Of a DNA stretch of 61,365 nucleotides, positions 24,945 through 56,640 are shown in pieces. Within the stretch, counting starts at the first letter, position 1, and every line of letters begins with the position of its first letter. The stretch comes from a virus (taxonomy: Duplodnaviria; Caudoviricetes). The notes under the pieces are model-generated. The model searched no databases, was not told the origin of the DNA, and was given only the letters and a program-made list of their open reading frames with translations. Location of the stretch: positions 1 through 61,365 of IMG/VR virus record IMGVR_UViG_3300008510_000002; one strand, 5' to 3'. The translations under genes were made by a program, and so were the position numbers.

Positions 24945-25280
24945 ATGAACGTCAACATCCGCGCTGCCCTCGCCCTTGAGGCTTCGTGCCTCAAGACCCT
25001 CCGGGCCACGGAGGCATGGGATCCCGTGCCCCTTCTTAGGGGCATTGCTCGCGAAGTGACCCTCGCGGAGGACTTCGCGGGCGACTACAAGGATGCGATC
25101 GCGTCCTTGTCGGCACAGTTGGCCGACAAGATTTGGGGATACGAAGTCTTCGCGCGGACTTCGGCTGAACGTCGGGCGTATGCTCGGGTAAAGGAAGAGG
25201 CTTCCCGTAGGGGTCTCTTCAATGGGCACGATTGCCCGAGAGCCACATCGACAGCGTGGCAAGCATTGTTTGGGGGCTAA
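24945..25280 (+). CDS. Hypothetical early protein
   Basis: 111 aa; GAGGA RBS; followed by terminators. Confidence 0.75.
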   Translation: MNVNIRAALALEASCLKTLRATEAWDPVPLLRGIAREVTLAEDFAGDYKDAIASLSAQLADKIWGYEVFARTSAERRAYARVKEEASRRGLFNGHDCPRATSTAWQALFGG

Positions 25281-25302
25281 GCCCTCGAACGAAGCCCTAA
25301 CC

Positions 25303-25364
25303 AGCCCCGGCGAGTGCCGGGGCTTTTTTATTGCCCCCAGGGTTCGCGCCCTGGGGGCTTTTTT
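25303..25364 (+). terminator. Tandem intrinsic terminators
   Basis: AGCCCCGGC..GCCGGGGCT with T-tract, then GCCCCCAGGG..CCCTGGGGGC with T6. Confidence 0.88.
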
Positions 25365-25460: not shown

Positions 25461-25644
25461 CACACGCAGGCTGCGCCCACACGGCCCGTCGCGGCACCAG
25501 ACGCTACGTTTACCAGTAAACACCGCCACCGGGCGGGCATTGCCCAGGGCGGACACCCGGTCCCCCACAGCACGCGAGCACGGCGCAGAGGCGGGGCGGC
25601 TCGATTTACTAGTAAATGCAGGGGCGAAAGCGGCCCGAGAGCAT

Positions 25645-26103: not shown

Positions 26104-27048
26104 ATGAAACCTCTCGACATCGACTCAGTTCTTCAGCTCGTCACCCTGCGCGAAGACGGGCGCTGGCTCTTCAGCCAAGCTGCCCCTGAACGCCTGCGCG
26201 GCCTGCCCGTACCCAGCGCCGCAAACCCTCAAGGTACAGTGGTCTACTTCTTTCACGGCACCTATTACGCCGTTGGAGACCACTACGACCCCCTGCTCAA
26301 AGCCTACGCCGCCTTGGCCCCCGAAGCCCGCCAAGGGATCGGCAGTCTGGACCCTGGGGCGGTCGGCAGTGCCCACAGCACTATAAACATCGTGGACAAG
26401 TTGTCCCCTCTGGACACTTGGACTGCCTTTCGAGACCGTGCCATGCAGAACGCCGTCCGCCGCCTGATGAAGCGCACAGGTGCTGAGCAGTTCCAGGTGA
26501 TCCCTGCCGTAGCTAGCCTCTTCGACGTAGCCCCCCGGGTTGTGAAGAAGGCCATGGGCGGCCTGATCCACGAAGGGGGCTCAGAGCCGGACCACAAGAA
26601 AGACCACCGCTGGCGCTCAGTGGTTGCCGAAGCCCACCGCTCCAAGAGCAGTGCCTATGGCCGGGACACCATCAGAGCAGCCGGAACTGCTCCCCGCTAC
26701 GGCAGGTTCAGTGCTGAAGACCTGCTTATCAAACACCGTGGCGAACTGCTGTTCCCCGAGCGCTGCCCCGTGCTGGGCCTGCCGCTGATCTATGACAGAC
26801 ATAGTTACCCGAAAGACCTCCGGCTGATCTCCATAGCCCGAAGGGATCCCACCAAGCCCATGGCACCGGACAACGTGCATTTGGTGTCGCGCCGTGCCTA
26901 TAAACTCCTTGAGACCCGTTCCAAGCCGGAGACCCCCGAGGAGGCGGACGCTGTACAGCGTTGGCGAGCGGGGCTGTCGCCGGTGCCTAACGGCACCCTA
27001 ACACCAGTGCCTAACGGCACGACACTGGACGCTAAAGACTTGACATAA
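26104..27048 (+). CDS. Hypothetical protein with degenerate HNH-like endonuclease domain
   Basis: GGAG RBS; C-terminal CPVLGLPL...SIARRDPTKP...NVHLVS resembles CPxLG...SLDRID..KGY..GNV..IS. Confidence 0.65.
   Translation: MKPLDIDSVLQLVTLREDGRWLFSQAAPERLRGLPVPSAANPQGTVVYFFHGTYYAVGDHYDPLLKAYAALAPEARQGIGSLDPGAVGSAHSTINIVDKLSPLDTWTAFRDRAMQNAVRRLMKRTGAEQFQVIPAVASLFDVAPRVVKKAMGGLIHEGGSEPDHKKDHRWRSVVAEAHRSKSSAYGRDTIRAAGTAPRYGRFSAEDLLIKHRGELLFPERCPVLGLPLIYDRHSYPKDLRLISIARRDPTKPMAPDNVHLVSRRAYKLLETRSKPETPEEADAVQRWRAGLSPVPNGTLTPVPNGTTLDAKDLT
26983..27020. repeat. Two GTGCC-TAAC-GGCAC hyphenated palindromes, 24 bp apart
   Basis: Copies at 26983-26996 and 27007-27020, just upstream of the -35 box at 27040. 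Confidence 0.8.
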
Positions 27049-27068
27049 GGGTCTGTTTGTGTTACAAT
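27040..27068 (+). promoter_or_regulatory. Strong sigma70-type promoter
   Basis: TTGACA-17 nt-TACAAT with TG extension. Confidence 0.85.
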
Positions 27069-27074
27069 ATATGT

Positions 27075-27615
27075 ATTGGGTCGGAGATCAACGTCAACGA
27101 CCTGCCGCTCTTTAACAACCTGCACCGGCGTCGGCGTTTACCAGTAAACGCTATTGGCCGGGGTTTTGCATGCTTACCTATAAGCATGCTGACAAGATCA
27201 CTGAACCAACGGACGGTCCCCCGTCCATGCAAAACGTACACAAACGCACAGCCCCATGCTGGAAGGCAGTTACAACTATGGTTGACTCTGCCCGGTAGGA
27301 CATAGGGTGTGCGACAGAAGACGGGCTCGTGTTCAGTCCCTCGACGTGATCGGCGGTAAGAGACCGTTGACGCGTAGGCCACAGGGGAAAGACCCTGTGC
27401 AGGTGCAGGTGCCAACCTGAATGGCACCGACTGACCCACGGCAGCAAACCGTGGACCCGCAGGGGGTGGAAACACTCGCCCCCTGCTCAAAGTGCTTCGC
27501 TCCGCTTCGCGGATTTCGTCCGCCCCCTGGACCCCTAGGCCCCCTGCCGGGCACCGGCTCGGGCTGAGCCCCACAAACACCGTGCAGAGCACTTTGAGCA
27601 GCATGTGCTGCGAGA
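27075..27615 (+). ncRNA. Large structured non-coding RNA or leader of unknown family
   Basis: No credible ORF; more than 12 stems visible, including long-range 27118-27126/27402-27410 and 27485-27496/27588-27599. Confidence 0.65.
27106..27118 (+). promoter_or_regulatory. boxA antitermination element
   Basis: CGCTCTTTAACAA matches rrn/lambdoid boxA consensus; preceded by a GGTCG/CGACC hairpin. Confidence 0.75.
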
Positions 27616-28083: not shown

Positions 28084-28109
28084 GCATGTGAGTTAACTAG
28101 GAGAAAGAC

Positions 28110-28397
28110 ATGATCTATGTAGGTAACGCGTTCTCCCTGGGCATGGTGCCCAGGGACTTGCTGGGGCGGGTTCGTCTGACCCCGTGCGAGGCCCCCGCTA
28201 CGGCGGGGATGACTTCCTGTGTCGGCCATGCCGACACGGCGGCGGTGCTGGGCGTGCCGATGGCACGCATCAGTGTCGTGCTCAACGAGGGCGACGTGCT
28301 GTACGTCGCCCAGCTTCGCGGGGGTCGCCTTCCTGAAGGCACCACCACCCTGCCCGAGGGGTTCGGGTTCGATTGGGTCCGTGTGGAGGTAGTATGA
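28110..28397 (+). CDS. acrIII-1: AcrIII-1 / DUF1874 (STIV B116-like) viral ring nuclease
   Basis: NAFSLGM, VGHADTA, R-I-x-V-x-L-x-x-GD and RLPEG motifs in family order; AGGAG RBS. Confidence 0.82.
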   Translation: MIYVGNAFSLGMVPRDLLGRVRLTPCEAPATAGMTSCVGHADTAAVLGVPMARISVVLNEGDVLYVAQLRGGRLPEGTTTLPEGFGFDWVRVEVV

Positions 28398-32437: not shown

Positions 32438-32462
32438 CCCACAGCCCAACTAGGAGAAAGAC

Positions 32463-33515
32463 ATGATCAAGCTCAGCATCAACCAGTGCGCCAACATCAT
32501 CGGCGCGGTCGGCTCCCATACCTCGGTCCTCGTCGAGGGCCCCTCGGGTTCCGGCAAGTCCTCCATGCTCAAGCCCCTGGGCGAGCGCTTCCCCGAGCAC
32601 CGCCCGGTCTACATCGACTGCACCCAGATCGACGTAGGTGACATCCAACTCCCCGCCGTGGACCATGCCACGGGGACCAGCACCTTCTACCCCAACGCCG
32701 TGTTCGGGGTCCACAACGATCAGCCGGTGATCCTGTGCCTGGACGAGTTCGGCAAGGCCCCGAGGTCGGTGCAGAACGCACTGCTGCCGGTCATCCTGGA
32801 TCGTCGTGTCGGGCATCGCCCGCTGCCTGCTGGCAGCATCGTCTTCGGGACAACCAACCTCAGCGCCGAGGGTGTGGGCGACAGCCTGCAGATGCACGTA
32901 CGGAATCGTATGTCGGTAGTCACCATGCGCAAGCCCACCGCCGAGGAGTGGGTGCAGTGGGGCATCGAGAACGGTGTGCACCACGCCGTGCTGGCCTGGG
33001 TATCGGAGACGCCCGCTGTGCTGGCTGACGACGACACGGTGGACAACCCCGACCAGAACCCGCACATCTGGCACCGCAAGGAACCCGGGCGCAAGGCGTT
33101 CTGCACCCCCCGCAGTCTCGCCGCTGCGGGCCGTGTGCTCAGTGCAGAGATGCAGGATGACGACGCCGTGCGGGCTACGCTGGCTGGGCTGATCGGTCCT
33201 CGGTCGGCGGCTGACCTCCAAGTCTGGGTGAACCTGGGCAACAAGCTGCCTGCGTGGCAGGCCATCGTGAACAACCCGGGCGCGGCGCCGCTGCCTGACA
33301 ACCCTGCGGCCATGATGATGGTGGTGCACCGTGCGATCACGCGGACCACGGCGGACATCCTCGACCCCGTGCTGGTCTACATCAAGCGCCTGCCCATGGA
33401 GCTTCAAGCGGTGTTCGTCAATCAGCTTTTGCGCATCAAGAGCAAGAGCACGTTCGCTGCGTTGAACGATGGCTTCACGCGGTGGGTTATCGACAATAAC
33501 TGGATATTCAGGTAA
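32463..33515 (+). CDS. MoxR/dynein-related AAA+ ATPase
   Basis: Walker A GPSGSGKS, Walker B LCLDEF, VQNALL, TTN, NRM, TPRS. Confidence 0.88.
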   Translation: MIKLSINQCANIIGAVGSHTSVLVEGPSGSGKSSMLKPLGERFPEHRPVYIDCTQIDVGDIQLPAVDHATGTSTFYPNAVFGVHNDQPVILCLDEFGKAPRSVQNALLPVILDRRVGHRPLPAGSIVFGTTNLSAEGVGDSLQMHVRNRMSVVTMRKPTAEEWVQWGIENGVHHAVLAWVSETPAVLADDDTVDNPDQNPHIWHRKEPGRKAFCTPRSLAAAGRVLSAEMQDDDAVRATLAGLIGPRSAADLQVWVNLGNKLPAWQAIVNNPGAAPLPDNPAAMMMVVHRAITRTTADILDPVLVYIKRLPMELQAVFVNQLLRIKSKSTFAALNDGFTRWVIDNNWIFR

Positions 33516-36031: not shown

Positions 36032-36060
36032 TTGACAGCCCCTTGGTGCCCTGCTACATT
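36032..36060 (+). promoter_or_regulatory. Sigma70-type promoter
   Basis: TTGACA-17 nt-TACATT with TG extension. Confidence 0.75.
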
Positions 36061-43571: not shown

Positions 43572-43668
43572 CCCCCCGGGGCTTCGACCCCGGTTCAGCC
43601 CTTCGGGGCATGTGTGCTCAACGGACTTTGTCCCTTGAGCGGTTTGTGTTTTGGAGCGGAGAATGGAA

Positions 43669-44196
43669 ATGAACCACGTAATGATCGACATCGAGACTCT
43701 GGGCACCCGCCCGGGGGACATCATCCTCAGCATCGGTGCTGTGAAATTCAGCCAGGACAAAGGTCTTGGCGAAGAGTTCTACGTCACCATCGACCCGGAG
43801 TCCTGCAAGGCAGTCGGCCTGCGTGCGCAGAAGAGTACCCTGGAGTGGTGGGGCAAGCAGTCGGAGGAAGCCCGCAAGGCAGCGTTCAAGGGGGAGTTCA
43901 GCCTGGAGATCGCCCTGACCAAGCTCACGATGTGGATGCCCCCGCTGGACACCGCATTCGTCTGGGGTAATGGTGCCAATTTCGACAACGCACTGGTGGC
44001 CGCTGCGTACCGGGCTGTGAAGCACGATGTGCCCTGGCACTACTGGAACGACCGCTGCTACCGCACCATCGCCGCGATGTTCATGAAGTACAAGGTCGAG
44101 CGGGTAGGCACCGGACACGTTGCGCTTGACGACGCCAAGACACAGGCACTGCGCCTGCTGCGCATGGCAGAGGATCACAAGTTCCAAATCAAGTAG
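43669..44196 (+). CDS. DEDD 3'-5' exonuclease (Rv2179c-like)
   Basis: MIDIETL, ILSIGAV, WGNGANFD, RCYRT, HVALDDA..QA. Confidence 0.88.
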   Translation: MNHVMIDIETLGTRPGDIILSIGAVKFSQDKGLGEEFYVTIDPESCKAVGLRAQKSTLEWWGKQSEEARKAAFKGEFSLEIALTKLTMWMPPLDTAFVWGNGANFDNALVAAAYRAVKHDVPWHYWNDRCYRTIAAMFMKYKVERVGTGHVALDDAKTQALRLLRMAEDHKFQIK

Positions 44197-47912: not shown

Positions 47913-50720
47913 ATGGCCTTCACAGACTTCTTCAGAAGCATACTCCCACAAGGCACGCGCTATGCACTACGGCTGATCCACAAACCCACAGACAAACGTC
48001 GTAATATCTTCTCCTCCTCATTCGAGGAGATGGGGGAACAAGCGGAAGAGCTATCCCGATCTGGGCTTGACCTGTATTACGCAACCGCTGGATTTGGGGC
48101 ACAACAAAAGGCGAACGCCGAGAACGCTGTAGCAAAGCGCGAACTGTACATAGACGTAGATTGCGGAGAGGGAAAACCGTACCAAGACAAAGCAGAAGGA
48201 CTCAATGCCCTGCGCCAGTTCTGCACGACCGTGGGCTTGCCCCGGCCCACCCTGATCGACTCAGGTAACGGCATCCACGTTCACTGGTTTTTCACGGACA
48301 GCGTGGCCCTGCATGAATGGCATGCGGTAGCCAACGCGCTAAAAGACCGGTGCAAAGCCGAAGGATTTATAGTTGACGGTGGATGCACCGCCGACTACGT
48401 CCGGGTACTGAGGATCCCCGGGACGATCAATACCAAGAATGGTGCGACGGTCACGCTGCTGACCCCGGTCAAGCACCACAACTTCAATACCCTGCGCGAC
48501 ATCATCGGCGTCTCTGTGTCCGAAGCGGACATGTTCGCCAAGGCGCGTGCACTGTCCAAGGGGTCCATGGAGGAGACCAAGAAGCTCTTCGTTGACCCCA
48601 ACAAGACCAACAAGTTTCACACGATCTGGATGAAGTCTGTGGGCGGTTTCGGCTGCTCGCAGATCGACTACGCTGCCCGGAACCAAGAGACGCTGCCCGA
48701 GCCCCTGTGGCGGGGCGTGCTGTCCATCGCGCAGTTCTGCGAAGACCGGGACTGGGGCATTCATGAGATCTCCAAGGACCACCCCAACTACAGCCCGGAA
48801 GAGACCGAAGCCAAGGCTGCGCTGACGAAGGGCCCCTACACCTGTGAGACGTTCCGGGGCCTGGATGAAGGCGCCCTGTGCGAGAAGTGCCCGCACTACG
48901 GGAAGATCACATCCCCCATCCAGCTTGGCTCAGAGATCAAAGCCTCTACCGAGCCGGTGAAGGTCAAGATCGAAGACCGAGAAGAGACGCTCCCGTCCTA
49001 CCCGCATCCGTTTTTCCGGGGGGCTACTGGTGGTGTCTACATGCATGTTGTGCATTCAGAAGGCAGCAAGTCATTCCATGTCAGTGCCTACGACATCTAC
49101 ATCTACAAGCGGATGCGGGACAGCACCGGTGGGGGCGACACACTCTGGGTCAGGCACCACCTCCCGCACAACGACATACGTGAGTTCACGATCCAGCAAA
49201 GCGAGGTTGCGTCGAAGGACAAATTCCGGGAGTGCATCAACCGTGAAGGTGTCATTGCCTTCGAGGACCGCCAGATAGGCGCCTTGCAACTGCTGTTCAG
49301 CAAGATGATTGAGGATCTACAGAAGGCTGAAAAGGCTGACAACATGAAAGTCAAGTTCGGCTGGACGCCAGACAACACCTTCGTTATCGGGAACCGCGAA
49401 TACACCCGCAACGGCGTGGTGCACAGCCCAACGTCGAAGCCCTTGGAGAACTACGTCAACTGGTTCACGCCGAAGGGCGACATCGAAGAGTGGAAGAGCG
49501 TCATCGCGCTGTACAACACCCCGGATATGGACCTGCATGCAGCCGGTGTGCTCGCAGGGTTCGGCAGTGTCCTGATGAACCTGTCGCCTGAGAACGGCGG
49601 TGTGCTGAACTACTACTCGAAGAAATCGGGGACCGGGAAAACCACCATCCTGCGTATCGCCAGTTCGATCTTTGGGGACCCCCTGAACCTGATGAAGGAC
49701 GCACAGGATACGAAGCTGACCAAGGTCCACCGCATGGGGTTGATGAACGGCATCGTCGTCACCATCGACGAGATGACCAATGCGGACCCAATGGAGTTGT
49801 CTGATCTGCTCTACAACTCTACGCAGGGGCGGGCACGGGACCGCATGCAGTCAAACAGCAACGCAGAGCGCACCAACAATACCCGCTGGAAGCAGATCAC
49901 GCTCTGGTCAAGCAACGCCGCTGTCGAAGACCGGCTGATCTCCATCAAGTCTGACCCACAGGGGGAACTTGCACGGGTGCTGGAGATTCGTCTGGACACC
50001 CCCGTGCCTAGTGATGTGCTCGGTGCGCAGTTGATGTTCAATAAGATCCTGGACAACTACGGGCATGCTGGCGACATCTACATGCGCTACGTGATTCCGC
50101 ACCTGGATGAAGTGAAGCGGATCTGGGAGAATACCCGAGACAAGATCTACAGCATGGAGCGGTGGACGCAGACTGAACGGTACAAGCTCAACGTCGTCAT
50201 CTGCATGGTTGCGGCAGGGTTGATCACGAACAACTTGGGGCTGACTCAGTTCAACATTGCCCGCATCGCCAAGAAGCTCGTTGGCCGGGTCCGCGACCTA
50301 CGCGATGAACTGAAGACCACGGCTACCACGGCATCCAGCACGGTGTCGTCATTCATCAACAAGAACATCAGGAACATCCTGATCGTCAACAAGCGTTCCG
50401 GCACCAGCGGCATCCCGGAAGTGCCGAGGGTAGAACCTCAGGGCGAACTCATCATCAGGTACGAACCCGACACCGATGCACTGTTCATCAACAAGCGTGA
50501 GTTCACGAAGTGGTGTTCGGTCAACTTCATCAACGCCCGGGAGATCGGCGTCCTGTTCAACCAGGAAACCGGAGGCGTCGTCAACGTCACGAAGAAGCGC
50601 ATGGGCGCTGGGTGGCGCACTGACCTGGGGGCGGTTGATGTGCTGGAGTTCCCCAACGCTCGGTCCCTGCTGAACCTCGATGACCTCGATGGATCGTCGC
50701 CTCCCGCACGAACTGCCTGA
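47913..50720 (+). CDS. Primase-helicase fusion (AEP/RepB-like primase, Cys cluster, DUF927-type helicase)
   Basis: IDVD, SGNGIHVHW, RVLRIPGT.N; EPLWRG, C..F..C..C; FGW, SGTGKTT, IDE, SSN. Confidence 0.85.
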   Translation: MAFTDFFRSILPQGTRYALRLIHKPTDKRRNIFSSSFEEMGEQAEELSRSGLDLYYATAGFGAQQKANAENAVAKRELYIDVDCGEGKPYQDKAEGLNALRQFCTTVGLPRPTLIDSGNGIHVHWFFTDSVALHEWHAVANALKDRCKAEGFIVDGGCTADYVRVLRIPGTINTKNGATVTLLTPVKHHNFNTLRDIIGVSVSEADMFAKARALSKGSMEETKKLFVDPNKTNKFHTIWMKSVGGFGCSQIDYAARNQETLPEPLWRGVLSIAQFCEDRDWGIHEISKDHPNYSPEETEAKAALTKGPYTCETFRGLDEGALCEKCPHYGKITSPIQLGSEIKASTEPVKVKIEDREETLPSYPHPFFRGATGGVYMHVVHSEGSKSFHVSAYDIYIYKRMRDSTGGGDTLWVRHHLPHNDIREFTIQQSEVASKDKFRECINREGVIAFEDRQIGALQLLFSKMIEDLQKAEKADNMKVKFGWTPDNTFVIGNREYTRNGVVHSPTSKPLENYVNWFTPKGDIEEWKSVIALYNTPDMDLHAAGVLAGFGSVLMNLSPENGGVLNYYSKKSGTGKTTILRIASSIFGDPLNLMKDAQDTKLTKVHRMGLMNGIVVTIDEMTNADPMELSDLLYNSTQGRARDRMQSNSNAERTNNTRWKQITLWSSNAAVEDRLISIKSDPQGELARVLEIRLDTPVPSDVLGAQLMFNKILDNYGHAGDIYMRYVIPHLDEVKRIWENTRDKIYSMERWTQTERYKLNVVICMVAAGLITNNLGLTQFNIARIAKKLVGRVRDLRDELKTTATTASSTVSSFINKNIRNILIVNKRSGTSGIPEVPRVEPQGELIIRYEPDTDALFINKREFTKWCSVNFINAREIGVLFNQETGGVVNVTKKRMGAGWRTDLGAVDVLEFPNARSLLNLDDLDGSSPPARTA

Positions 50721-50919
50721 GGTCGTCACCATCCGGGGCGTTCAGTACCGCTTGCCGCAGTGGCTGGAGCCCGGGCAGTCCTTCTTCGTGCCGTGCCTGG
50801 ACGCACGCTCCATGGGGTCGGTGATGTCAGGGCGCTACAGCCGCATGGGCTGGAAGACCGCATGGGCTGAGAGGATCGAGAGCGGCTTGCTTGGCATCCG
50901 CGTCTGGCGTGAGGTATAG
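50689..50919 (+). CDS. Small putative DNA-binding protein, resembles 36191-36433
   Basis: GQSFFVP...GIRVWR pattern. Confidence 0.65.
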   Translation: MDRRLPHELPEVVTIRGVQYRLPQWLEPGQSFFVPCLDARSMGSVMSGRYSRMGWKTAWAERIESGLLGIRVWREV

Positions 50920-50926
50920 TCCACCC

Positions 50927-51001
50927 GCTGGCCGCATGTTGGGCCGGTGTCTCCCTCCTAGTTGGCCCCCGGGTTGAGCTTGCTCCTCGGGGGCATTTTT
51001 T
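50927..51001 (+). ncRNA. Candidate trans-acting antisense sRNA
   Basis: TTGGCA-18 nt-TATAGT upstream (50891-50920); 5' hairpin, unpaired TGTCTCCCTCCTAGTT seed, terminator. Confidence 0.55.
50965..51001 (+). terminator. Intrinsic terminator at the convergence of early and late units
   Basis: GCCCCCGGG...CTCGGGGGC then ATTTTTT. Confidence 0.75.
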
Positions 51002-54000
51002 CACCGGAGGTCGATCTCCGCTTGGTTGATCTGCGCCTGCCGGCGCAGGGCGTAGCTGATCTGCGCAAGCTCGTTCTGCTGCGCACGCAAGGTGTTCATG
51101 ATCTGGCGGCGCTCGTCAGGCGGGATGTCCTTCGCACGGTCAACAACCTGCGCTTCGCGGTTCAAGTCCCGGATGCTCTCCATCACCGCCTTGGTGGCTT
51201 CGTAAACGCTGTATCTACCGTAGTTCTCAAGCAGGTATGCGTCGGCCTTTTCCGGTGCAGTCTGCACCAGTCGGTTGTAGGTGTTGTACGCCTGAGTAAC
51301 TTTGTCCTCGAAGTCGTACATGTCATCCAGGAACCGAGTACCCACAGGATCCTTCATGAAGGCACTGGCACCGGTAAGCTGAGCAGCCAAGTGCTGGTGC
51401 AGTGGACGATCTGTCCGCGTCGGGTTGACCATCACATCAGCCACAGACAGCGCCACCCCCGCCGACATGCCCAGCACACCCCGGATCGCGTTCTCGATCT
51501 TGATGGGGGAAAGCTCAATGCCAAGCTGGGCCAGAGCTTCCGCCGATGCTTTGACGGCTTCCGAGGTGCCGGTGCCGAAGCGCTGCGAGGGGTCCAGCCG
51601 CAGTTGGGATTGCGACTCCAGAGGCCGGCCCAGGAAGAACGAGTGGTTCATCATGTTCTCAAGGAACGGCTTCACAAGCTGAGGCGTCAGGTTCGGCGCC
51701 CAGAAGATGTCCACGCCCGACAGCATCAACTCCCGCGCCACCCTGAGGGCATCGCGCTCTTCGGGGGTCCCCTGGAGCTTGTAGTACTGCACCACCCGTT
51801 CAGGGATAGCCTTGAAGAAGAACGACAGTTCAGGCGGCACAGGGATGACCGGTGTGAAGCCAAGCTCCTTGCCGTAGGGCAGGACCCAGTTGCGGTCCCG
51901 CACATGGTCAGGCAGGTTCTGGTACTCCTCATCGTCGGACATCAGCAGGGCGTAGCTGAGCCCCATGGCGGTCAGGATGCCCATCCGCTTGAAGAACAGG
52001 TTGCGAGCGTAACCCGTGGCAACGCCGACCGTCTTACCGCCAGCAGCGGCCAGGAGAAGCTTGTCCATCGACCGGGCGTAGGCGTTGAAGAAGGGGATCG
52101 TGCGGATGAAGAAGTCCGCCGTAGTGGAGGCGCCCCGCCGTGAGAAGTTGATGATCTCCCGTGCGCGGGACTCGGCCAGCGCCACGTCGCCGGTCTCCTT
52201 CATGGTCTGGTCGTAGATGGCTTGGCGTACGGACACATCCGATGCCTTGGCACCCGCCTCCAGGATGCGCAGGATGGCGCGGCCCAGGGACCGCTTGCTG
52301 ATGCCTGTCTCCTCGAAGATGTTGCGGACGTTGCCACCTTCCACGGTGTCATAGGCTGGTACAACCCCATGCTGCGCAAGTTTTGCCACCCCCGGACTGC
52401 GCGTACCTTTGATCTCGTTCCACCAGTTGCGCGGCATGTTAGAGAGGATGCGAGGAATCAACGCCATGGGGTTCTTCACCCCCGAATGGACGTAACCACG
52501 GGTAATGTCGTCAGAAATCTGCTTGACTGCGAAGGCCGGTGTAATGGTGACGCCGATACGGAGGACCTGGGACAGTTTCTGCGCCGCACGCATGAAGCTG
52601 CCAATCTGCATGGACTTGGCCCCCGCAAAAGCAGCCAGATTCGCCGGGTCAGGGACGTAGTAGAACTTCTGCTGGCCTTTCTGCCAAGACGATACCACTG
52701 CACCCTTCTGACTTTGGGGCATTTGGTCTCGACCGCGAGGCAAATACTTGGCTGCACCCACAAGCTCCAGATCGCGCAGGGCTCGGCCTACGGCCTCGGC
52801 TTTCATCCCTTCCCGTGTCATCCACTCCATGAGACCGACGAAGTTCTTGATCGGGTTCTCGGTCTGTCGTTCGGAAGAGCCTTTGAACTCCTTCATCTGC
52901 TTGAAGGCGGCGAGCTTGAAGTTGGTGGACACACCCCCTTGCCCCTGTGAAACATAGAACTTGTCCAGTTCTTCAATGCGTTTGAAAGGGGTATAGGCCG
53001 TGGCTTCTTTCCACTCTTTTGCCTTGTCCTTGGTGATGCGCCCTGTAGCTACCAAGAAGTCAAGTCCAGCAAAACGAATGGCGTCCATCTTTTCGCTCAC
53101 ATCTTTGATGAAAGCGTCATTGCTGAACTTCTCGTTGGCTGCTTCAGCTTCCTCAGGCGTGAGGTAAAACTCCAGTTTCACTTCCCGAGCATCGTTGTCC
53201 TTCATGAGTTCGTACTCACGACGGCCCGCCAAGACTTCACCGATCTCCTTGACAAACTGCCCAGGTGCCTGCCCTCGGCGTTGGGCTTCTGCCGCTATGT
53301 CGCGCAGGACACCCTCAAAGGAAATCTTTTGCCCGTTGTAGTCAAGTTCTGTAATGCGCGAAAGTCCGCTGGGGTCTACTACGATGGTGCCTACCCGAAG
53401 CATCTCTTGGGCGAAGCGCGGAGCATCCAGCGCCTGGGACAGCAGAACGACGGGGTTCATGTTCCCCGAGTTGTCGCGGATGCTGTTGCTGTAGAGGTAG
53501 CCCATCTCAGCCTCGACCCCGGCCAAGGAGTCAGTGGCTTGTGCACGCAGCCCGATGGTCTTGCGCTCGCCCAGCGTCCGCCCGATGGCATCACCAGCAG
53601 TGGCTTCGGTGCGTTCACCGACAAGCGCGTCAGAAAGAGTCATCCCCGCAGCAGATTCTGCTTGCCTAAAATACGAGGTAAGAGGTTCATCGAACACGCC
53701 TTCGGAGATTGTCATCAACTCTGCAAGTGCGGAACCTTCCCTTTTGTTCAGTTTGAGAATTTGGGATATTAGGTCGAAGAACCTGCCGAGGAAAGTGCCC
53801 CCAGTAGGACTAGGTGTAGACGCAAGCCAGTTTTGGAAGTCAGCATTCACGAGCCCATAGGTTATAAGCTCATAGGGGTCTTTGAGTGCGCGTTTGAATA
53901 GTTGCTCTTGGAAGTCGCTAAGCTCACCAGCTTTATTCTGTTCTCTAAATATGGGGACGAGATCTCTGTGTAGCAGCTTCAGCTTCATAGCCGCACTGCT

Positions 54001-56640
54001 CTGCGGCGCAAACCTAATTTGCGCGACGGTGACCGCGTGGATCAGTTCATGAACTAGCGTTTCCTGCCTAAGCGTGTTTCGTGCAGACCCCGTGTACCCG
54101 TTTACCGTTACGCTTACATCTAATGTCCTACTGAACTCAGCTTTTCCCCGCGCAGCGGGTAACGACTGCCCAGGTGGTGTTAGTGCGAATGAAAATTTCA
54201 CCTCCGCGTCCGCCATTTCTTCGGCGCGACGTTTTACCTTAACCAGCACAGCGCGGTCAAGATCATCACGAGCGTTCAGGATTGCGTAGTCAATAGCCTC
54301 CATAAACGACTTCCCACGAAGGGCGTCGTCCATTTCCCGGGAATTGGGGAGGCTTGAAAGCTCAAACCGTGTTTGCGGGAATTTTGGTCCCGGCGTAGGA
54401 GTGGACGCAACAGGAGCGCGAGCAGCGGTGGGGGGCGGAGCGGGGACCTCCAGGGTAGCGGCAGCAGGAAGCGCGGCGGGAACCTCCGGAGTAGCAGGGG
54501 CAGCAGGGGCAGCAGGGGCAGCAGGGGCAGCAGAAACTTTCGGGCTAACAGAGGGCTCAGCGCCATACTTCCTGAGTAGCTCCCGCGCAGCATTGATGTG
54601 CTTCGCACCGGGTTTGATCCTATTCCCGGTCTCGTCAACATGCTCTTCGACGTAGGCGTCGTATTCCTCCTGGGACATGCGTCCAGAGATACGCTCAACC
54701 TCCTCAGCGAGATCCCCGCGTTGCTCAGGTGTGAGGTCAGTAGGTGCCGGGGCTGGGGCCTCGGTCACTGCAGCGGGCTGCTCTCCTTCTCCTGCAGCAG
54801 GGCGTCCAGCATCCTCGACAGGAGGAACCACTCGTACTGGCTCAGCGGCTCCAACTCCTTCGGCGGGGCTGACGGCAGCGGGTCCGCCAGCCACTGAAAC
54901 GCCTGCTCCAATTCGCTCTGGTTCAGTTGGAATACTGGGCGCACTTGGGGTCTCCGTGATTGGTGCCGGGGCAGCTTCTGGTGCTGAGGCAGCTTCTGGT
55001 GCTGAGGCAGCAGTCTCAGCCTCCACCGTGGGCGTGATGGGTTCAGGCAAACGCGCAACGAAGGCGTCAATCTTAGCCGCTGTTTTGGAGCTGGTTGTGC
55101 GCTCCTTCGCGTCCTCAAGAATGGTGCGAATCTCAGGGTCGGTGATGGACTTGCCGACCAAGGCGTCATGGATCCTGCCCCTGGTGAAACCGATGGTCCT
55201 GATAGTGGCACTGTCCAGCACATCCGGCAGGGGTGCGGGCCCTCGTACGGTCGGCTCTTCCACCGTAGGCGTTGTGGGTTCCGTGGCCGTGGGCGGCGGC
55301 AGAGTGGGCGTCCAGCGCCCACCACCGATCTCAACCAGACGAGCGTCAAGCTCATCGAAGCGACGACGCGCCGGGGTCTTGGGGGCTGGGGGCTTACCCT
55401 TGACGAGCAAGCCTTCTCGTTGCGCCCGCAGGCGGGCGATCTCCTCGCGCCGTGCCTCAGTGGGGTCGAACTCTTCCCGGGGCGTCACGCCCTGTGCAGC
55501 GGCTTCCTCAGCCGTCAGGAACCCTTCAGCCACCTTCTTCCCGGCGCGGGCACGCTCGGTGTCTTCCCGTTGCCTGCGGGCGCGTTCTGCCTCAAGCTCA
55601 CGGATCGCCGCGTTGCGCTCCTTGGACTCCGGCCGCTGCTTGAGGGTCTCGATCTCCTGTGTCAGTCTCGGGTAAGCCTCGGTGATGGGCTGCGCCAAGG
55701 TCTCGTCAATGACGGTCTGGGCACGGTTGATAGGTTCGCGCTTGGCTTCCGCTTTGGCAGCGATCTCGGCTGCCTGCTCACGACGCAGTCGCTCGACCGG
55801 CAGTTCCCCGGGTGGGCCTTCGGGTACACCTTCAGCCGGCGCAGCGCCAGCACCCGCTCCGCGTGCTCGACGCCCAAGCGCAAGGTCCATCAGCCCCTGA
55901 ACGATTGCACCGGTGGCGCCGCCGTAGGCAGCCTGCTCGCCAAGGCCCTCGATGAGTTCCTGCTCCGGTTTGTACACCCCACGGGCGATCATGTTCTGGG
56001 CAAGGCCCGATGCGGCTTCCTGTGCGGCTTCCTCGCCGGCTGCCTGGAGCACTCGCTTGACCTTGGCCGCTGCGGTCAGCACCTCCCCTTCGGGGATGCG
56101 AGACAGGATCCTGAACGGCGCGAAGACTTCCAAGGCGCCAGGGATGGTGCCCAGAGCGGTTGCAGTGCCCCGCTGCTCCTCAGTAGCGCCCTCAGCCTCC
56201 GCCCGGGTTCGCGCTTCGCCTGCGCCGGCTCCAACGCCCAGACCCACAGCCGCTGCGCGGCCAGCCAAACCAAGAGGCCCCGCCAACAGGAAGGGGATCG
56301 TGGAGCCTACGGCCTCCGTGACTTTTCTCGGGATGCTCTCTTCGTACCCCGGCGCCGGGGCGAAGGGCGCCTTGGCGGCGCCAGCAACCCTGGCAATCGC
56401 TTCCCGAGCGGCACGCTCTTGCTCCTCCGGCAGGAGGGCGGATGCACCGATGGCAGCGCTCTCGACCAGACCGACAGCACCAGGGATCAGGCCCTTGAAG
56501 GCTTCGCCTACTTGCCCGAAGAACGTGGTCTCGGGGGCAACTCCCAACACCTTTTTTACAGTGGCTTGGATGACCCGCGGATCGGTTCCGTCAGGAAACT
56601 CCAAGATCCGTCCATCGTGCAGTTGGGCTTGAACCGGCAT
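51001..56640 (-). CDS. Large polyvalent ejection protein (HExxH peptidase-like domain, C-terminal LPD38-like domain)
   Basis: 1879 aa; LEFPDGT N-terminus; LVHELIH; NFSRRG, IPFFNA, YQNLP...NW, IPVPPEL. Confidence 0.8.
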   Translation of the reverse strand: MPVQAQLHDGRILEFPDGTDPRVIQATVKKVLGVAPETTFFGQVGEAFKGLIPGAVGLVESAAIGASALLPEEQERAAREAIARVAGAAKAPFAPAPGYEESIPRKVTEAVGSTIPFLLAGPLGLAGRAAAVGLGVGAGAGEARTRAEAEGATEEQRGTATALGTIPGALEVFAPFRILSRIPEGEVLTAAAKVKRVLQAAGEEAAQEAASGLAQNMIARGVYKPEQELIEGLGEQAAYGGATGAIVQGLMDLALGRRARGAGAGAAPAEGVPEGPPGELPVERLRREQAAEIAAKAEAKREPINRAQTVIDETLAQPITEAYPRLTQEIETLKQRPESKERNAAIRELEAERARRQREDTERARAGKKVAEGFLTAEEAAAQGVTPREEFDPTEARREEIARLRAQREGLLVKGKPPAPKTPARRRFDELDARLVEIGGGRWTPTLPPPTATEPTTPTVEEPTVRGPAPLPDVLDSATIRTIGFTRGRIHDALVGKSITDPEIRTILEDAKERTTSSKTAAKIDAFVARLPEPITPTVEAETAASAPEAASAPEAAPAPITETPSAPSIPTEPERIGAGVSVAGGPAAVSPAEGVGAAEPVRVVPPVEDAGRPAAGEGEQPAAVTEAPAPAPTDLTPEQRGDLAEEVERISGRMSQEEYDAYVEEHVDETGNRIKPGAKHINAARELLRKYGAEPSVSPKVSAAPAAPAAPAAPATPEVPAALPAAATLEVPAPPPTAARAPVASTPTPGPKFPQTRFELSSLPNSREMDDALRGKSFMEAIDYAILNARDDLDRAVLVKVKRRAEEMADAEVKFSFALTPPGQSLPAARGKAEFSRTLDVSVTVNGYTGSARNTLRQETLVHELIHAVTVAQIRFAPQSSAAMKLKLLHRDLVPIFREQNKAGELSDFQEQLFKRALKDPYELITYGLVNADFQNWLASTPSPTGGTFLGRFFDLISQILKLNKREGSALAELMTISEGVFDEPLTSYFRQAESAAGMTLSDALVGERTEATAGDAIGRTLGERKTIGLRAQATDSLAGVEAEMGYLYSNSIRDNSGNMNPVVLLSQALDAPRFAQEMLRVGTIVVDPSGLSRITELDYNGQKISFEGVLRDIAAEAQRRGQAPGQFVKEIGEVLAGRREYELMKDNDAREVKLEFYLTPEEAEAANEKFSNDAFIKDVSEKMDAIRFAGLDFLVATGRITKDKAKEWKEATAYTPFKRIEELDKFYVSQGQGGVSTNFKLAAFKQMKEFKGSSERQTENPIKNFVGLMEWMTREGMKAEAVGRALRDLELVGAAKYLPRGRDQMPQSQKGAVVSSWQKGQQKFYYVPDPANLAAFAGAKSMQIGSFMRAAQKLSQVLRIGVTITPAFAVKQISDDITRGYVHSGVKNPMALIPRILSNMPRNWWNEIKGTRSPGVAKLAQHGVVPAYDTVEGGNVRNIFEETGISKRSLGRAILRILEAGAKASDVSVRQAIYDQTMKETGDVALAESRAREIINFSRRGASTTADFFIRTIPFFNAYARSMDKLLLAAAGGKTVGVATGYARNLFFKRMGILTAMGLSYALLMSDDEEYQNLPDHVRDRNWVLPYGKELGFTPVIPVPPELSFFFKAIPERVVQYYKLQGTPEERDALRVARELMLSGVDIFWAPNLTPQLVKPFLENMMNHSFFLGRPLESQSQLRLDPSQRFGTGTSEAVKASAEALAQLGIELSPIKIENAIRGVLGMSAGVALSVADVMVNPTRTDRPLHQHLAAQLTGASAFMKDPVGTRFLDDMYDFEDKVTQAYNTYNRLVQTAPEKADAYLLENYGRYSVYEATKAVMESIRDLNREAQVVDRAKDIPPDERRQIMNTLRAQQNELAQISYALRRQAQINQAEIDLR

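Follow-up and report, generated by a model that had tools for sequence, protein, structure and literature searches.

The virus record IMGVR_UViG_3300008510_000002, analysed over its whole length of 61,365 nt (the window) and rated 97% complete, carries at the end of its early gene block a compact element that is, very probably, a conserved structured RNA gene or RNA 3′ module. It would give rise to a small RNA (sRNA) of about 75 nt (50927-51001, plus strand), whose start is placed from a −10 box and whose end from a terminator, and which exposes a CU-rich stretch complementary to Shine-Dalgarno (SD) sequences. The reading favoured here, with a confidence slightly above even, is that of a trans-acting anti-SD sRNA that represses a few early genes of the phage, chiefly those for an AAA ATPase and a 3′-5′ exonuclease. 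The structure is conserved in relatives through compensatory changes, and the sequences around the anti-SD core appear to vary between lineages along with the start regions that they would pair with.

Regarding its anatomy, the predicted RNA begins with a 5′ hairpin with a stem of 7 bp and a loop of 8 nt (50927-50948), continues with an unpaired CU-rich stretch of 16 nt, GUCUCCCUCCUAGUUG (50949-50964; the seed), which contains an invariant CUCCU core at 50955-50959, and ends with an intrinsic terminator (50965-51001) that is common to the upstream early operon and consists of a 30-nt G+C-rich hairpin (50965-50994) followed by AUUUUUU. A promoter, a 5′ hairpin, an unpaired stretch and a terminator had been listed in a preliminary description of this DNA; all four were found where it had placed them, and they are conserved as a unit in 21 distinct elements. 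The 75-nt RNA has a minimum free energy (MFE) of -34.3 kcal/mol and a z score of -2.17, and 6 of 200 shuffled sequences fold equally well. The mean unpaired probability of the seed is 0.98 in the window and 0.70-1.00 in ten genomes, and the CUCCU core, with the predicted start used, is unpaired with a probability of 0.70-1.00 in the ten genomes. Folded one by one, 17 of the 21 elements give the hairpin, the open CU stretch and the terminator; in the other four (L005, L007, L037, L050) the MFE structure pairs part of the CU stretch. A small peptide encoded within the RNA (ATG at 50936, 13 codons) was considered and discarded, because the sequence of the hairpin loop is not conserved.

As for its distribution, a protein search with the primase of the early block returned 19 viral loci at 62-92% identity, and the module lies downstream in all 15 that reach past the end of the primase; it is also present in G006, a genome with 53% primase identity that was recovered by protein and not by pattern. 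Pattern scans and protein loci together gave 23 distinct 115-nt strings: 21 are members of the family, and two (L038 and L040) are chance pattern matches that lack a terminator. Members found by pattern are biased toward retained promoter letters; those found by protein, and G006, are free of this bias. The elements span five lineages, with one copy per genome, and occur in every relative reaching this point. A covariance model (R1), built from 17 elements with G006 left out of the training, yields a single strong match per genome in ten genomes, at 79.9-94.1 bits (94.1 in the window), and scores 41.7 bits (E 3e-8) on G006, which has TTGGCA-18-TATGAT, a different hairpin (GCUGGC/GCCAGC), the seed GUUUCUCCUCCUAUUCG and a terminator. 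The sole other R1 match in the window (25290-25364, 27 bits) was rejected as a second copy of the sRNA: at 25303-25364 two tandem intrinsic terminators follow the gene 24945-25280, and they hold no CU-rich single strand.

The two helices are supported by the pattern of substitutions. In the alignment of 17 sequences, 93.5% of the helix cells are paired, compared with 85.1% after column shuffling and 41-60% when the partners are slid, and nine pairs are changed on both sides, a number reached by none of 500 shuffles. Each of the five core pairs of the 5′ hairpin shows double compensatory changes (GC, AU, UA, GU) and none is broken in the 17 sequences; the ten stem pairs of the terminator are 100% paired in the same set, and RNAalifold independently recovers both helices. 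Between them, CUCCU, the complement of AGGAG and thus an anti-SD sequence, is invariant in the 21 elements and in G006, and its flanks are lineage-specific.

These features bear on an alternative according to which the locus is an ordinary operon end with a stabilising hairpin and an intrinsic terminator, and the promoter letters and the CU stretch have no regulatory role. The module does sit exactly in the gap between convergent genes, where a terminator would be required in any case; the window shows no enrichment of promoter-like sites, no transcript is seen in the contigs and R1 matches the tandem terminators at 25290-25364, albeit weakly. However, a terminator has no need of a second, upstream hairpin with compensatory changes, of an invariant unpaired CUCCU, or of rare codons and a rare stop that hold TTGGCA-18-TATRRT, and an ordinary operon end does not predict flanks that follow their cognate start regions. 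This explanation is therefore rather unlikely.

The promoter letters deserve closer description. The −35-like hexamer TTGGCA (50891-50896, plus strand) is spelled by the codons CTT GGC ATC of a 79-aa open reading frame (ORF), and the −10-like hexamer TATAGT (50915-50920, plus strand) by its last sense codon GTA, its stop TAG and a T; since the box includes this stop, the putative promoter lies within coding sequence. TTGGCA-18-TATAGT matches the consensus at 10 of 12 positions and is the sole promoter-like site in 49500-52500, a region for which shuffles give 0.4 +/- 0.6. TTGGCA is invariant across all relatives recovered by protein search: the peptide LGIRVWR is conserved and its Arg codons vary freely (CGC, AGG, CGA, CGG), with CTT-GGC-AT fixed, although just 14% of Leu codons are CTT. 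As last sense codon, GTA, CTA, ATA or TTA (V, L or I) is used, so that the letters TA are always kept; NTA codons make up 1.4% of sense codons, and TAG is used at 6 of 126 stops. In G006 the stop TAG is replaced by TGA and the −10 letters are retained, because GTA-TGA-T reads TATGAT; across relatives the conserved form is TTGGCA-18-TAT(A/G)(G/A)T. Letters that are kept while the codons change would look like the expected picture of a −10 box imposed on a coding end.

Turning to the candidate targets, the cassette AACTAGGAGAAAGACA occurs exactly at 28095 and 32448, at the start of an AcrIII-1-like gene and of the AAA ATPase gene, and its reverse complement is found at 50948-50963 with two mismatches (14/16). 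At up to three mismatches the cassette has five matches in the window, compared with 0.19 expected, and 0 of 100 shuffles reach five; the two plus-strand copies are identical over 21 nt. Both the 14/16 complementarity and the identity of the two copies had been noted previously and are confirmed, with the qualification that realistic contiguous pairing is shorter, with 11 bp (CCAACUAGGAG) at the ATPase and 9 bp at the 28110 gene; the remainder of the 14/16 consists of a 2x2 internal loop and GACA:UGUC, the last U of which belongs to the closing G.U pair of hairpin 1. The shorter motif CTAGGAG is found at 28097, 32227, 32450, 36553 and 46093 on the plus strand and at 50955 on the minus strand. 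All five plus-strand copies stand 5-8 nt before a called start codon, in agreement with the genes that the preliminary description had named; the motif as such is not enriched in the window (6 copies vs 4.21 expected, with 25 of 100 shuffles reaching 6).

The start region of the ATPase (32446-32465, plus strand; gene 32463-33515, Pfam AAA_5) reads CCAACUAGGAG-AA-AGACA-UG and pairs with the unpaired seed over 11 contiguous bp plus an extension, at -21.1 kcal/mol. It is the best start region of the window and, with both strands considered, the third best site after the RNA's own antisense; the earlier proposal of the ATPase as a target is thus upheld, and its pairing follows the lineage-specific seed. 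The start region of the 177-aa 3′-5′ exonuclease (43653-43665, plus strand; gene 43663-44196), GGAGCGGAGA-AUG, is a further candidate: it pairs with UCUCC-CUCC at -14.9 kcal/mol, and its product belongs to Pfam PF16473 (Rv2179c-like, DEDD/RNase T) with an E-value of 4.1e-48.

Whether such complementarity follows the seed was assessed in ten genomes or contigs, in which the orthologs of the plus-strand proteins of the window were located by tblastn; alignments starting after residue 12 and families with fewer than four lineages were dropped, and 17 families were left. Five seed types were compared: W, that of the window (UCUCCCUCCUAGUUGG), E (AUCUCCCUCCUGUGUUGG), D (CUGUGCGUCUCCUAGUUAG), D2 (CUGUGCCUCCUAGAGUUAGG) and F (GUUUCUCCUCCUAUUCG). 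For each family, the summed duplex energy obtained when every lineage is assigned its own seed was set against the other 119 of the 120 permutations, and the own assignment is the single best of 120 for three of the 17 families: the AAA ATPase, the 177-aa exonuclease and a 95-aa protein that belongs to no family. With pseudo-seeds taken from hairpin 1, none of the 17 families ranks first; among 534 seed sets with shuffled flanks, 1.7% have at least three families at rank 1 and 1.1% attain the observed value of the summed-log statistic. When 210 start regions are pooled, the identity assignment is second of 120, and the sole better one swaps the near-identical D and D2 seeds.

The exonuclease is the best-conserved case, with own-seed pairing in 5/5 lineages. 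In W the mRNA carries GGAG(C/U)GGAGA, which faces UCUCC-CUCC in the seed; in D, CUAGGAG-CGCA faces UGCG-U-CUCCUAG; in D2, UCUAGGAG-CACA faces UGUG-C-CUCCUAGA; in E, CACAGGAG-AGA faces CUCCUGUG and UCU; and in F, AGGAG-A-AGAAAUG faces CGUUUCU-C-CUCCU. As for the ATPase, its start region in D2, CUCUAGGAAGCACA, matches the D2 seed at 13/14 positions. A fourth family, of 91-148 aa and missing from the window, behaves alike: its start region carries CCAACUAGGAG in the relative of type W, and GGAGAGCACA(G) in types D and D2. Overall, the complementarity appears to co-vary with the seed, an effect of moderate size; the co-variation of seed and ribosome-binding sites in relatives to which the preliminary description had looked is thereby borne out to this extent, across five lineages.

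Several results weigh against repression of specific phage genes. Any CU-rich RNA pairs with SD sequences, and when the anti-SD part was kept and the 3′ flank randomised (300 trials per genome, six genomes), random seeds were at least as good as the real one in a fraction of 0.27-0.93; a defined CTAGGAG regulon, as previously put forward, is thus inseparable from generic SD pairing in bulk tests. Among strong start-region outliers genome-wide the own seed is not enriched with respect to foreign seeds, and for contiguous matches three D-lineage genomes favour the seeds of other lineages. Early, plus-strand start regions pair better than minus-strand ones in 6/6 genomes, which could simply reflect stronger SD sequences. 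Pairing of the ATPase is absent in 2/3 D genomes, the window's own gene for the 95-aa protein (35360) has no pairing, and real seeds tested on internal coding windows put 1/17 families at rank 1. The co-variation test covers only five lineages with crude gene calls, its families are anchored on plus-strand proteins of the window, and the seed types of L044 and L050 are known only from contigs of 1-3 kb. Moreover, promoter-like sites are as frequent in the window as in shuffles (5 vs 4.7 expected, and 5 vs 3.5), so that the case for the promoter rests on its conservation, and a spacer of 18 nt is suboptimal. Finally, the RNA-library data, which are assembled contigs of public runs with small shares and no strand information, show no discrete transcript, and in a metatranscriptome run with a close relative (X4) a 227-nt contig over 50940-51156 crosses the terminator into the late gene.

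The AcrIII-1-like gene (28110-28397) adds to these points. In the window its start region, AACUAGGAGAAAGACAUG (28095-28112, plus strand), forms 9 contiguous bp at -16.9 kcal/mol and is the fourth best start region; in G001, the ortholog with 80% identity does not pair with the G001 seed (-8.4 kcal/mol), and the gene is therefore a candidate target in this genome only and not a conserved one. This also removes the support for describing the RNA as a counterpart of Aca repression. With regard to the set of early genes proposed earlier, the ATPase stands, the AcrIII-1-like gene does not stand as a conserved member, and the exonuclease at 43663, the best-conserved candidate, had not been included. 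The product of the 28110 gene, likewise 95 aa long, probably resembles the DUF1874/PF08960 family, which we take to include AcrIII-1, and three sub-threshold matches concur in this: against Pfam PF08960 (STIV B116-like/DUF1874) it scores 16 bits (E 0.014) and does not reach the gathering score of 26, its best PDB match is AFV3-109 (E 0.019, with the GH..TA motif aligned), and its nearest Atlas clusters are all PF08960 (0.87, 215 shared features).

The minus strand of the locus must be considered in relation to the metatranscriptome contig. On that strand the hairpin is not followed by a U-tract, so that transcripts of the late genes may continue through the sRNA gene in antisense; for this reason the X4 contig, which neither shows nor excludes a small RNA, is compatible with late antisense transcription. 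Over 49500-52500, X4 contributes four pieces; none begins before 50940 or covers the primase part, and the three other than the 227-nt contig lie within the late gene. Neither this gap in coverage nor the lack of a discrete small contig counts for or against an sRNA. The functional strand could be the minus one, with AACUAGGAGGGAGAC serving as a ribosome-binding site or as an element of the 3′ untranslated region (3′-UTR) of the late operon, or with the convergent transcripts acting as mutual antisense RNAs. The minus-strand copy does resemble a strong SD sequence, the hairpin lacks a U-tract on that side and the contig joins the late gene to 50940; yet the only start codon after it (ATG 50937, opening a 36-aa ORF) is 13 nt away from the SD-like run and is absent in relatives such as L003 and the D lineage, and the T-run and the promoter letters are oriented to the plus strand in all elements. 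The 36-aa ORF was rejected on the first two of these grounds, and a function of this strand is very improbable.

As for the mechanism, transcription of an RNA of about 75 nt would start from a sigma-70-type promoter overlapping the closing codons, stop included, of the last early gene. Processing of the 3′ end of the early operon would be an alternative source, since sRNA and operon share one terminator, and the conserved promoter letters are compatible with an RNA that is also, or only, cut from that transcript. Its single-stranded stretch would pair with the region from the SD sequence to the AUG of a few early mRNAs, the main candidates here being those of the AAA ATPase (32463) and the DEDD 3′-5′ exonuclease (43663) and, in relatives, also those of the 95-aa and 91-148-aa proteins. 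Pairing would block binding of the 30S subunit and turn the targets down as the RNA accumulates. What the data show is the anatomy of the element, its conservation, the covariation of its helices, the accessibility of its seed and a complementarity matched to lineages; we infer that the RNA would exist as a discrete species and that its effect would be repression rather than activation, as well as the timing.

Much of the same evidence could be claimed for a cis-acting 3′-UTR element of the early mRNA that folds back on its own start regions, with no separate sRNA involved; the icaR 3′UTR reportedly folds back in this way on the start region of its own transcript. The genes of the ATPase and of the exonuclease are on the same strand and upstream, possibly in the same transcript, the terminator is shared, and the lineage-matched complementarity would also be accounted for. 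Against such an element, the −35 and −10 letters held against codon bias argue for local initiation, the targets are 7-18 kb away with predicted terminators and promoters intervening, and the hairpin opens the predicted transcript, a feature of stable primary sRNAs. Folding back in cis is accordingly given little probability.

In comparison with known RNAs, no Rfam family is found at the gathering threshold in the whole window. Below threshold, the top match in two lineages is RF02278 (Betaproteobacteria toxic small RNA), with 22.7 bits in the window (E 0.006), 26.3 in G006 (E 8e-4) and 16.6 in G001, short of the gathering score of 50; further sub-threshold matches include anti-hemB (22.3 bits in G001; gathering score 49.5), ncS25 and ncS54. 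The D lineage (G002) gives no Rfam match at relaxed thresholds, and a pooled search of ten small loci by E-value gives nothing at E <= 1, in a search space about 100 times larger. In the cmscan alignment to RF02278 the first hairpin of the model is deleted, and the aligned parts are limited to UGUCUCC, CUCCU and the terminator; given this and scores far below gathering, the RNA is not a member of RF02278.

The likeness to this group is nonetheless a functional one, and CU-rich double-hairpin sRNAs are the functionally closest known kind. The passages on the Burkholderia double-hairpin RNAs ncS03, ncS05, ncS27 and ncS62 describe molecules of about 57-92 nt whose second hairpin is a Rho-independent terminator and whose CU-rich unpaired stretches are complementary to ribosome-binding sites, with predicted interactions centred on start regions (PMC5688073, PMC4603805); overexpression of ncS27 is described there as attenuating growth (PMC5688073). 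The element shares with RF02278 RNAs the size, the two hairpins with the second as terminator and the unpaired CU stretch complementary to ribosome-binding sites. Unlike them, it has this stretch between the hairpins, whereas in RF02278 the corresponding sequences are the loop of the first hairpin and a CU-rich 5′ end, an arrangement not seen here; in addition, it is encoded by a phage, in one copy at an operon end, and it is the genes of this phage that it matches best.

This resemblance raises the possibility that the RNA is real and acts mainly on host mRNAs, as a copy or mimic of the CU-rich sRNAs of Betaproteobacteria, which pair with the ribosome-binding sites of metabolic genes and reduce growth, with the phage matches secondary or incidental; such a role would not be exclusive of repression of the phage's own genes. 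The best sub-threshold Rfam matches in three lineages are indeed Burkholderia or Betaproteobacteria sRNAs, for which pairing to ribosome-binding sites and growth attenuation are described as above, and of the seed nothing but the generic anti-SD core is invariant. Nevertheless, the scores are far below gathering (50 and 49.5 bits) with none for the D lineage, the likeness consists largely of a CU run and a G+C-rich terminator, and seed flanks that track the phage's own start regions would be left without explanation. Searching bacterial genomes for the primase returned two matches only, at 27-28% identity in alphaproteobacterial metagenome-assembled genomes, which do not point to a host. An action mainly on the host is, on balance, unlikely.

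Among phage RNAs, the closest to the element is the c4 RNA of P1 and P7, together with isrK/C4 RNAs. The text of PMC12197685 on c4 describes a small phage RNA that binds around the ribosome-binding site of the ant operon mRNA and blocks its translation, through exposed complementary sequences whose specificity differs between related phages (PMC12197685). The shared traits are that they are encoded by phages and expose complementarity to ribosome-binding sites; c4, in contrast, controls one antirepressor operon in the immunity of temperate phages, and in the element a CU run of anti-SD type would serve as seed, with several replication and recombination genes as candidates. Rfam C4 (RF01695) is not among the matches at E <= 10 on the region, nor at the gathering threshold.

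MicL and DapZ exemplify sRNAs derived from 3′-UTRs; they are chromosomal, Hfq-dependent and enterobacterial, and act on host genes. The element resembles them in having its promoter in the 3′ end of a coding gene, a terminator shared with the mRNA and a seed directly 5′ of the terminator hairpin; it differs from them in being encoded by a phage, with phage genes as candidate targets. T4 RegA is a protein repressor that recognises RNA motifs and occludes the start regions of early mRNAs, including those of DNA-metabolism genes; the likeness is one of outline, a phage product acting over a set of early start regions, but the effector proposed here is an RNA that works by base pairing. MmgR/alpha-r8 (RF00519) aligns over its full length at 15.2 and 16.9 bits, below the gathering score of 41 bits, and has likewise a hairpin, a CUCCCU single strand and a terminator; unlike the element, it is alphaproteobacterial and chromosomal. 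The sRNA2 of PAK_P3 was rejected as an anti-RBS (ribosome-binding site) precedent, because the sections of PMC4933390 on the PAK_P3 sRNAs report otherwise, namely an 11-mer resembling a tRNA T-loop and single 11-nt matches inside genes (PMC4933390). A keyword search of the open-access literature returned no phage sRNA with an anti-SD seed against several of its own early genes, which is not proof of absence. The element is accordingly classed as a new sRNA family that uses a variation on a known mechanism.

Regarding its genomic setting, the early and replication block occupies the plus strand from about 24.3 kb to 50,919 and encodes a DNA polymerase A, an SNF2 helicase, a DEDD exonuclease, the AAA ATPase and a DUF927 primase-helicase. 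Its last gene in the ORF list is the 79-aa ORF (50680-50919, plus strand), whose C-terminal codons hold the promoter; its product is kept in relatives with the motif ...ERIE.G.LGIRVWR and matched no Pfam or PHROG family. The sRNA module fills the 81-nt gap between this ORF and a convergent gene on the minus strand (51001-56640), the stop codon of which, at 51001, abuts the terminator. This gene encodes an 1879-aa protein with an LPD38 polyvalent-protein domain, the residues 856-1003 of which weakly match a PHROG of virion RNA polymerases; the protein is possibly an injected multi-domain one. Downstream of the terminator T-run the sequence is wholly different among otherwise close relatives (L003, L004 and L006 vs the window), so the sRNA terminator is a recombination boundary, with the replication module on one side and differing late modules on the other. 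A scan of the window for tRNAs found none, and 50300-51500 had no match in public phage genomes.

Other regulatory signals occur within the early block. Its two best sigma-70-like promoters, at 27040-27068 and 36032-36060, read TTGACA-17-TACAAT and TTGACA-17-TACATT, each with the TG of an extended −10, and suggest that the host polymerase would read the early genes in several units. The 12-nt palindrome TTTAC(C/T)AGTAAA is present three times (25509-25520, 25605-25616 and 27137-27148), compared with 0.03 expected, and similar palindromes, TTTACCAGTAAA, TTTATCAGTAAA and TTTATTGATAAA, stand immediately 5′ of the ATPase start region in G005, G004 and G001, respectively; a protein repressor of the early genes may use the palindrome as its operator. 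As for the start regions, those of the 95-aa DUF1874-like gene and of the AAA ATPase (28095-28115 and 32448-32468), two unrelated genes, have in common AACTAGGAGAAAGACATGATC over 21 nt, and further start cassettes recur, such as GGAGAGTTCACATG before 27630 and 27808 and CAACCCGAAAGAGGA.CAC.ATGAAC before 24945 and 31234. The phage thus seems to reuse ribosome-binding cassettes, which are perhaps recombination joints between gene modules.

A broader proposal, doubtful in its entirety, would combine several of these elements: translation of the DNA-metabolism genes of the phage (those for the ATPase, the DEDD exonuclease and their small partners) would be shut off by one anti-SD sRNA, with seed flanks co-evolving with the start regions, as an RNA counterpart of RegA; the same RNA would mimic CU-rich double-hairpin sRNAs of the host and damp host translation; and the unterminated convergent transcript, antisense to it, would neutralise it late in infection.

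In conclusion, a group of uncultured phages keeps a compact sRNA gene, the seed of which appears to track the ribosome-binding regions of the phages' own replication and recombination genes. If this is true, the five lineages would offer a natural set of five cognate pairs of sRNA and start region for studying how an RNA regulator and its targets co-evolve, and the R1 model of sequence and structure could find more such genes in viral metagenomes. It would also add temporal control at the RNA level to the known ways by which phages switch off their early genes.

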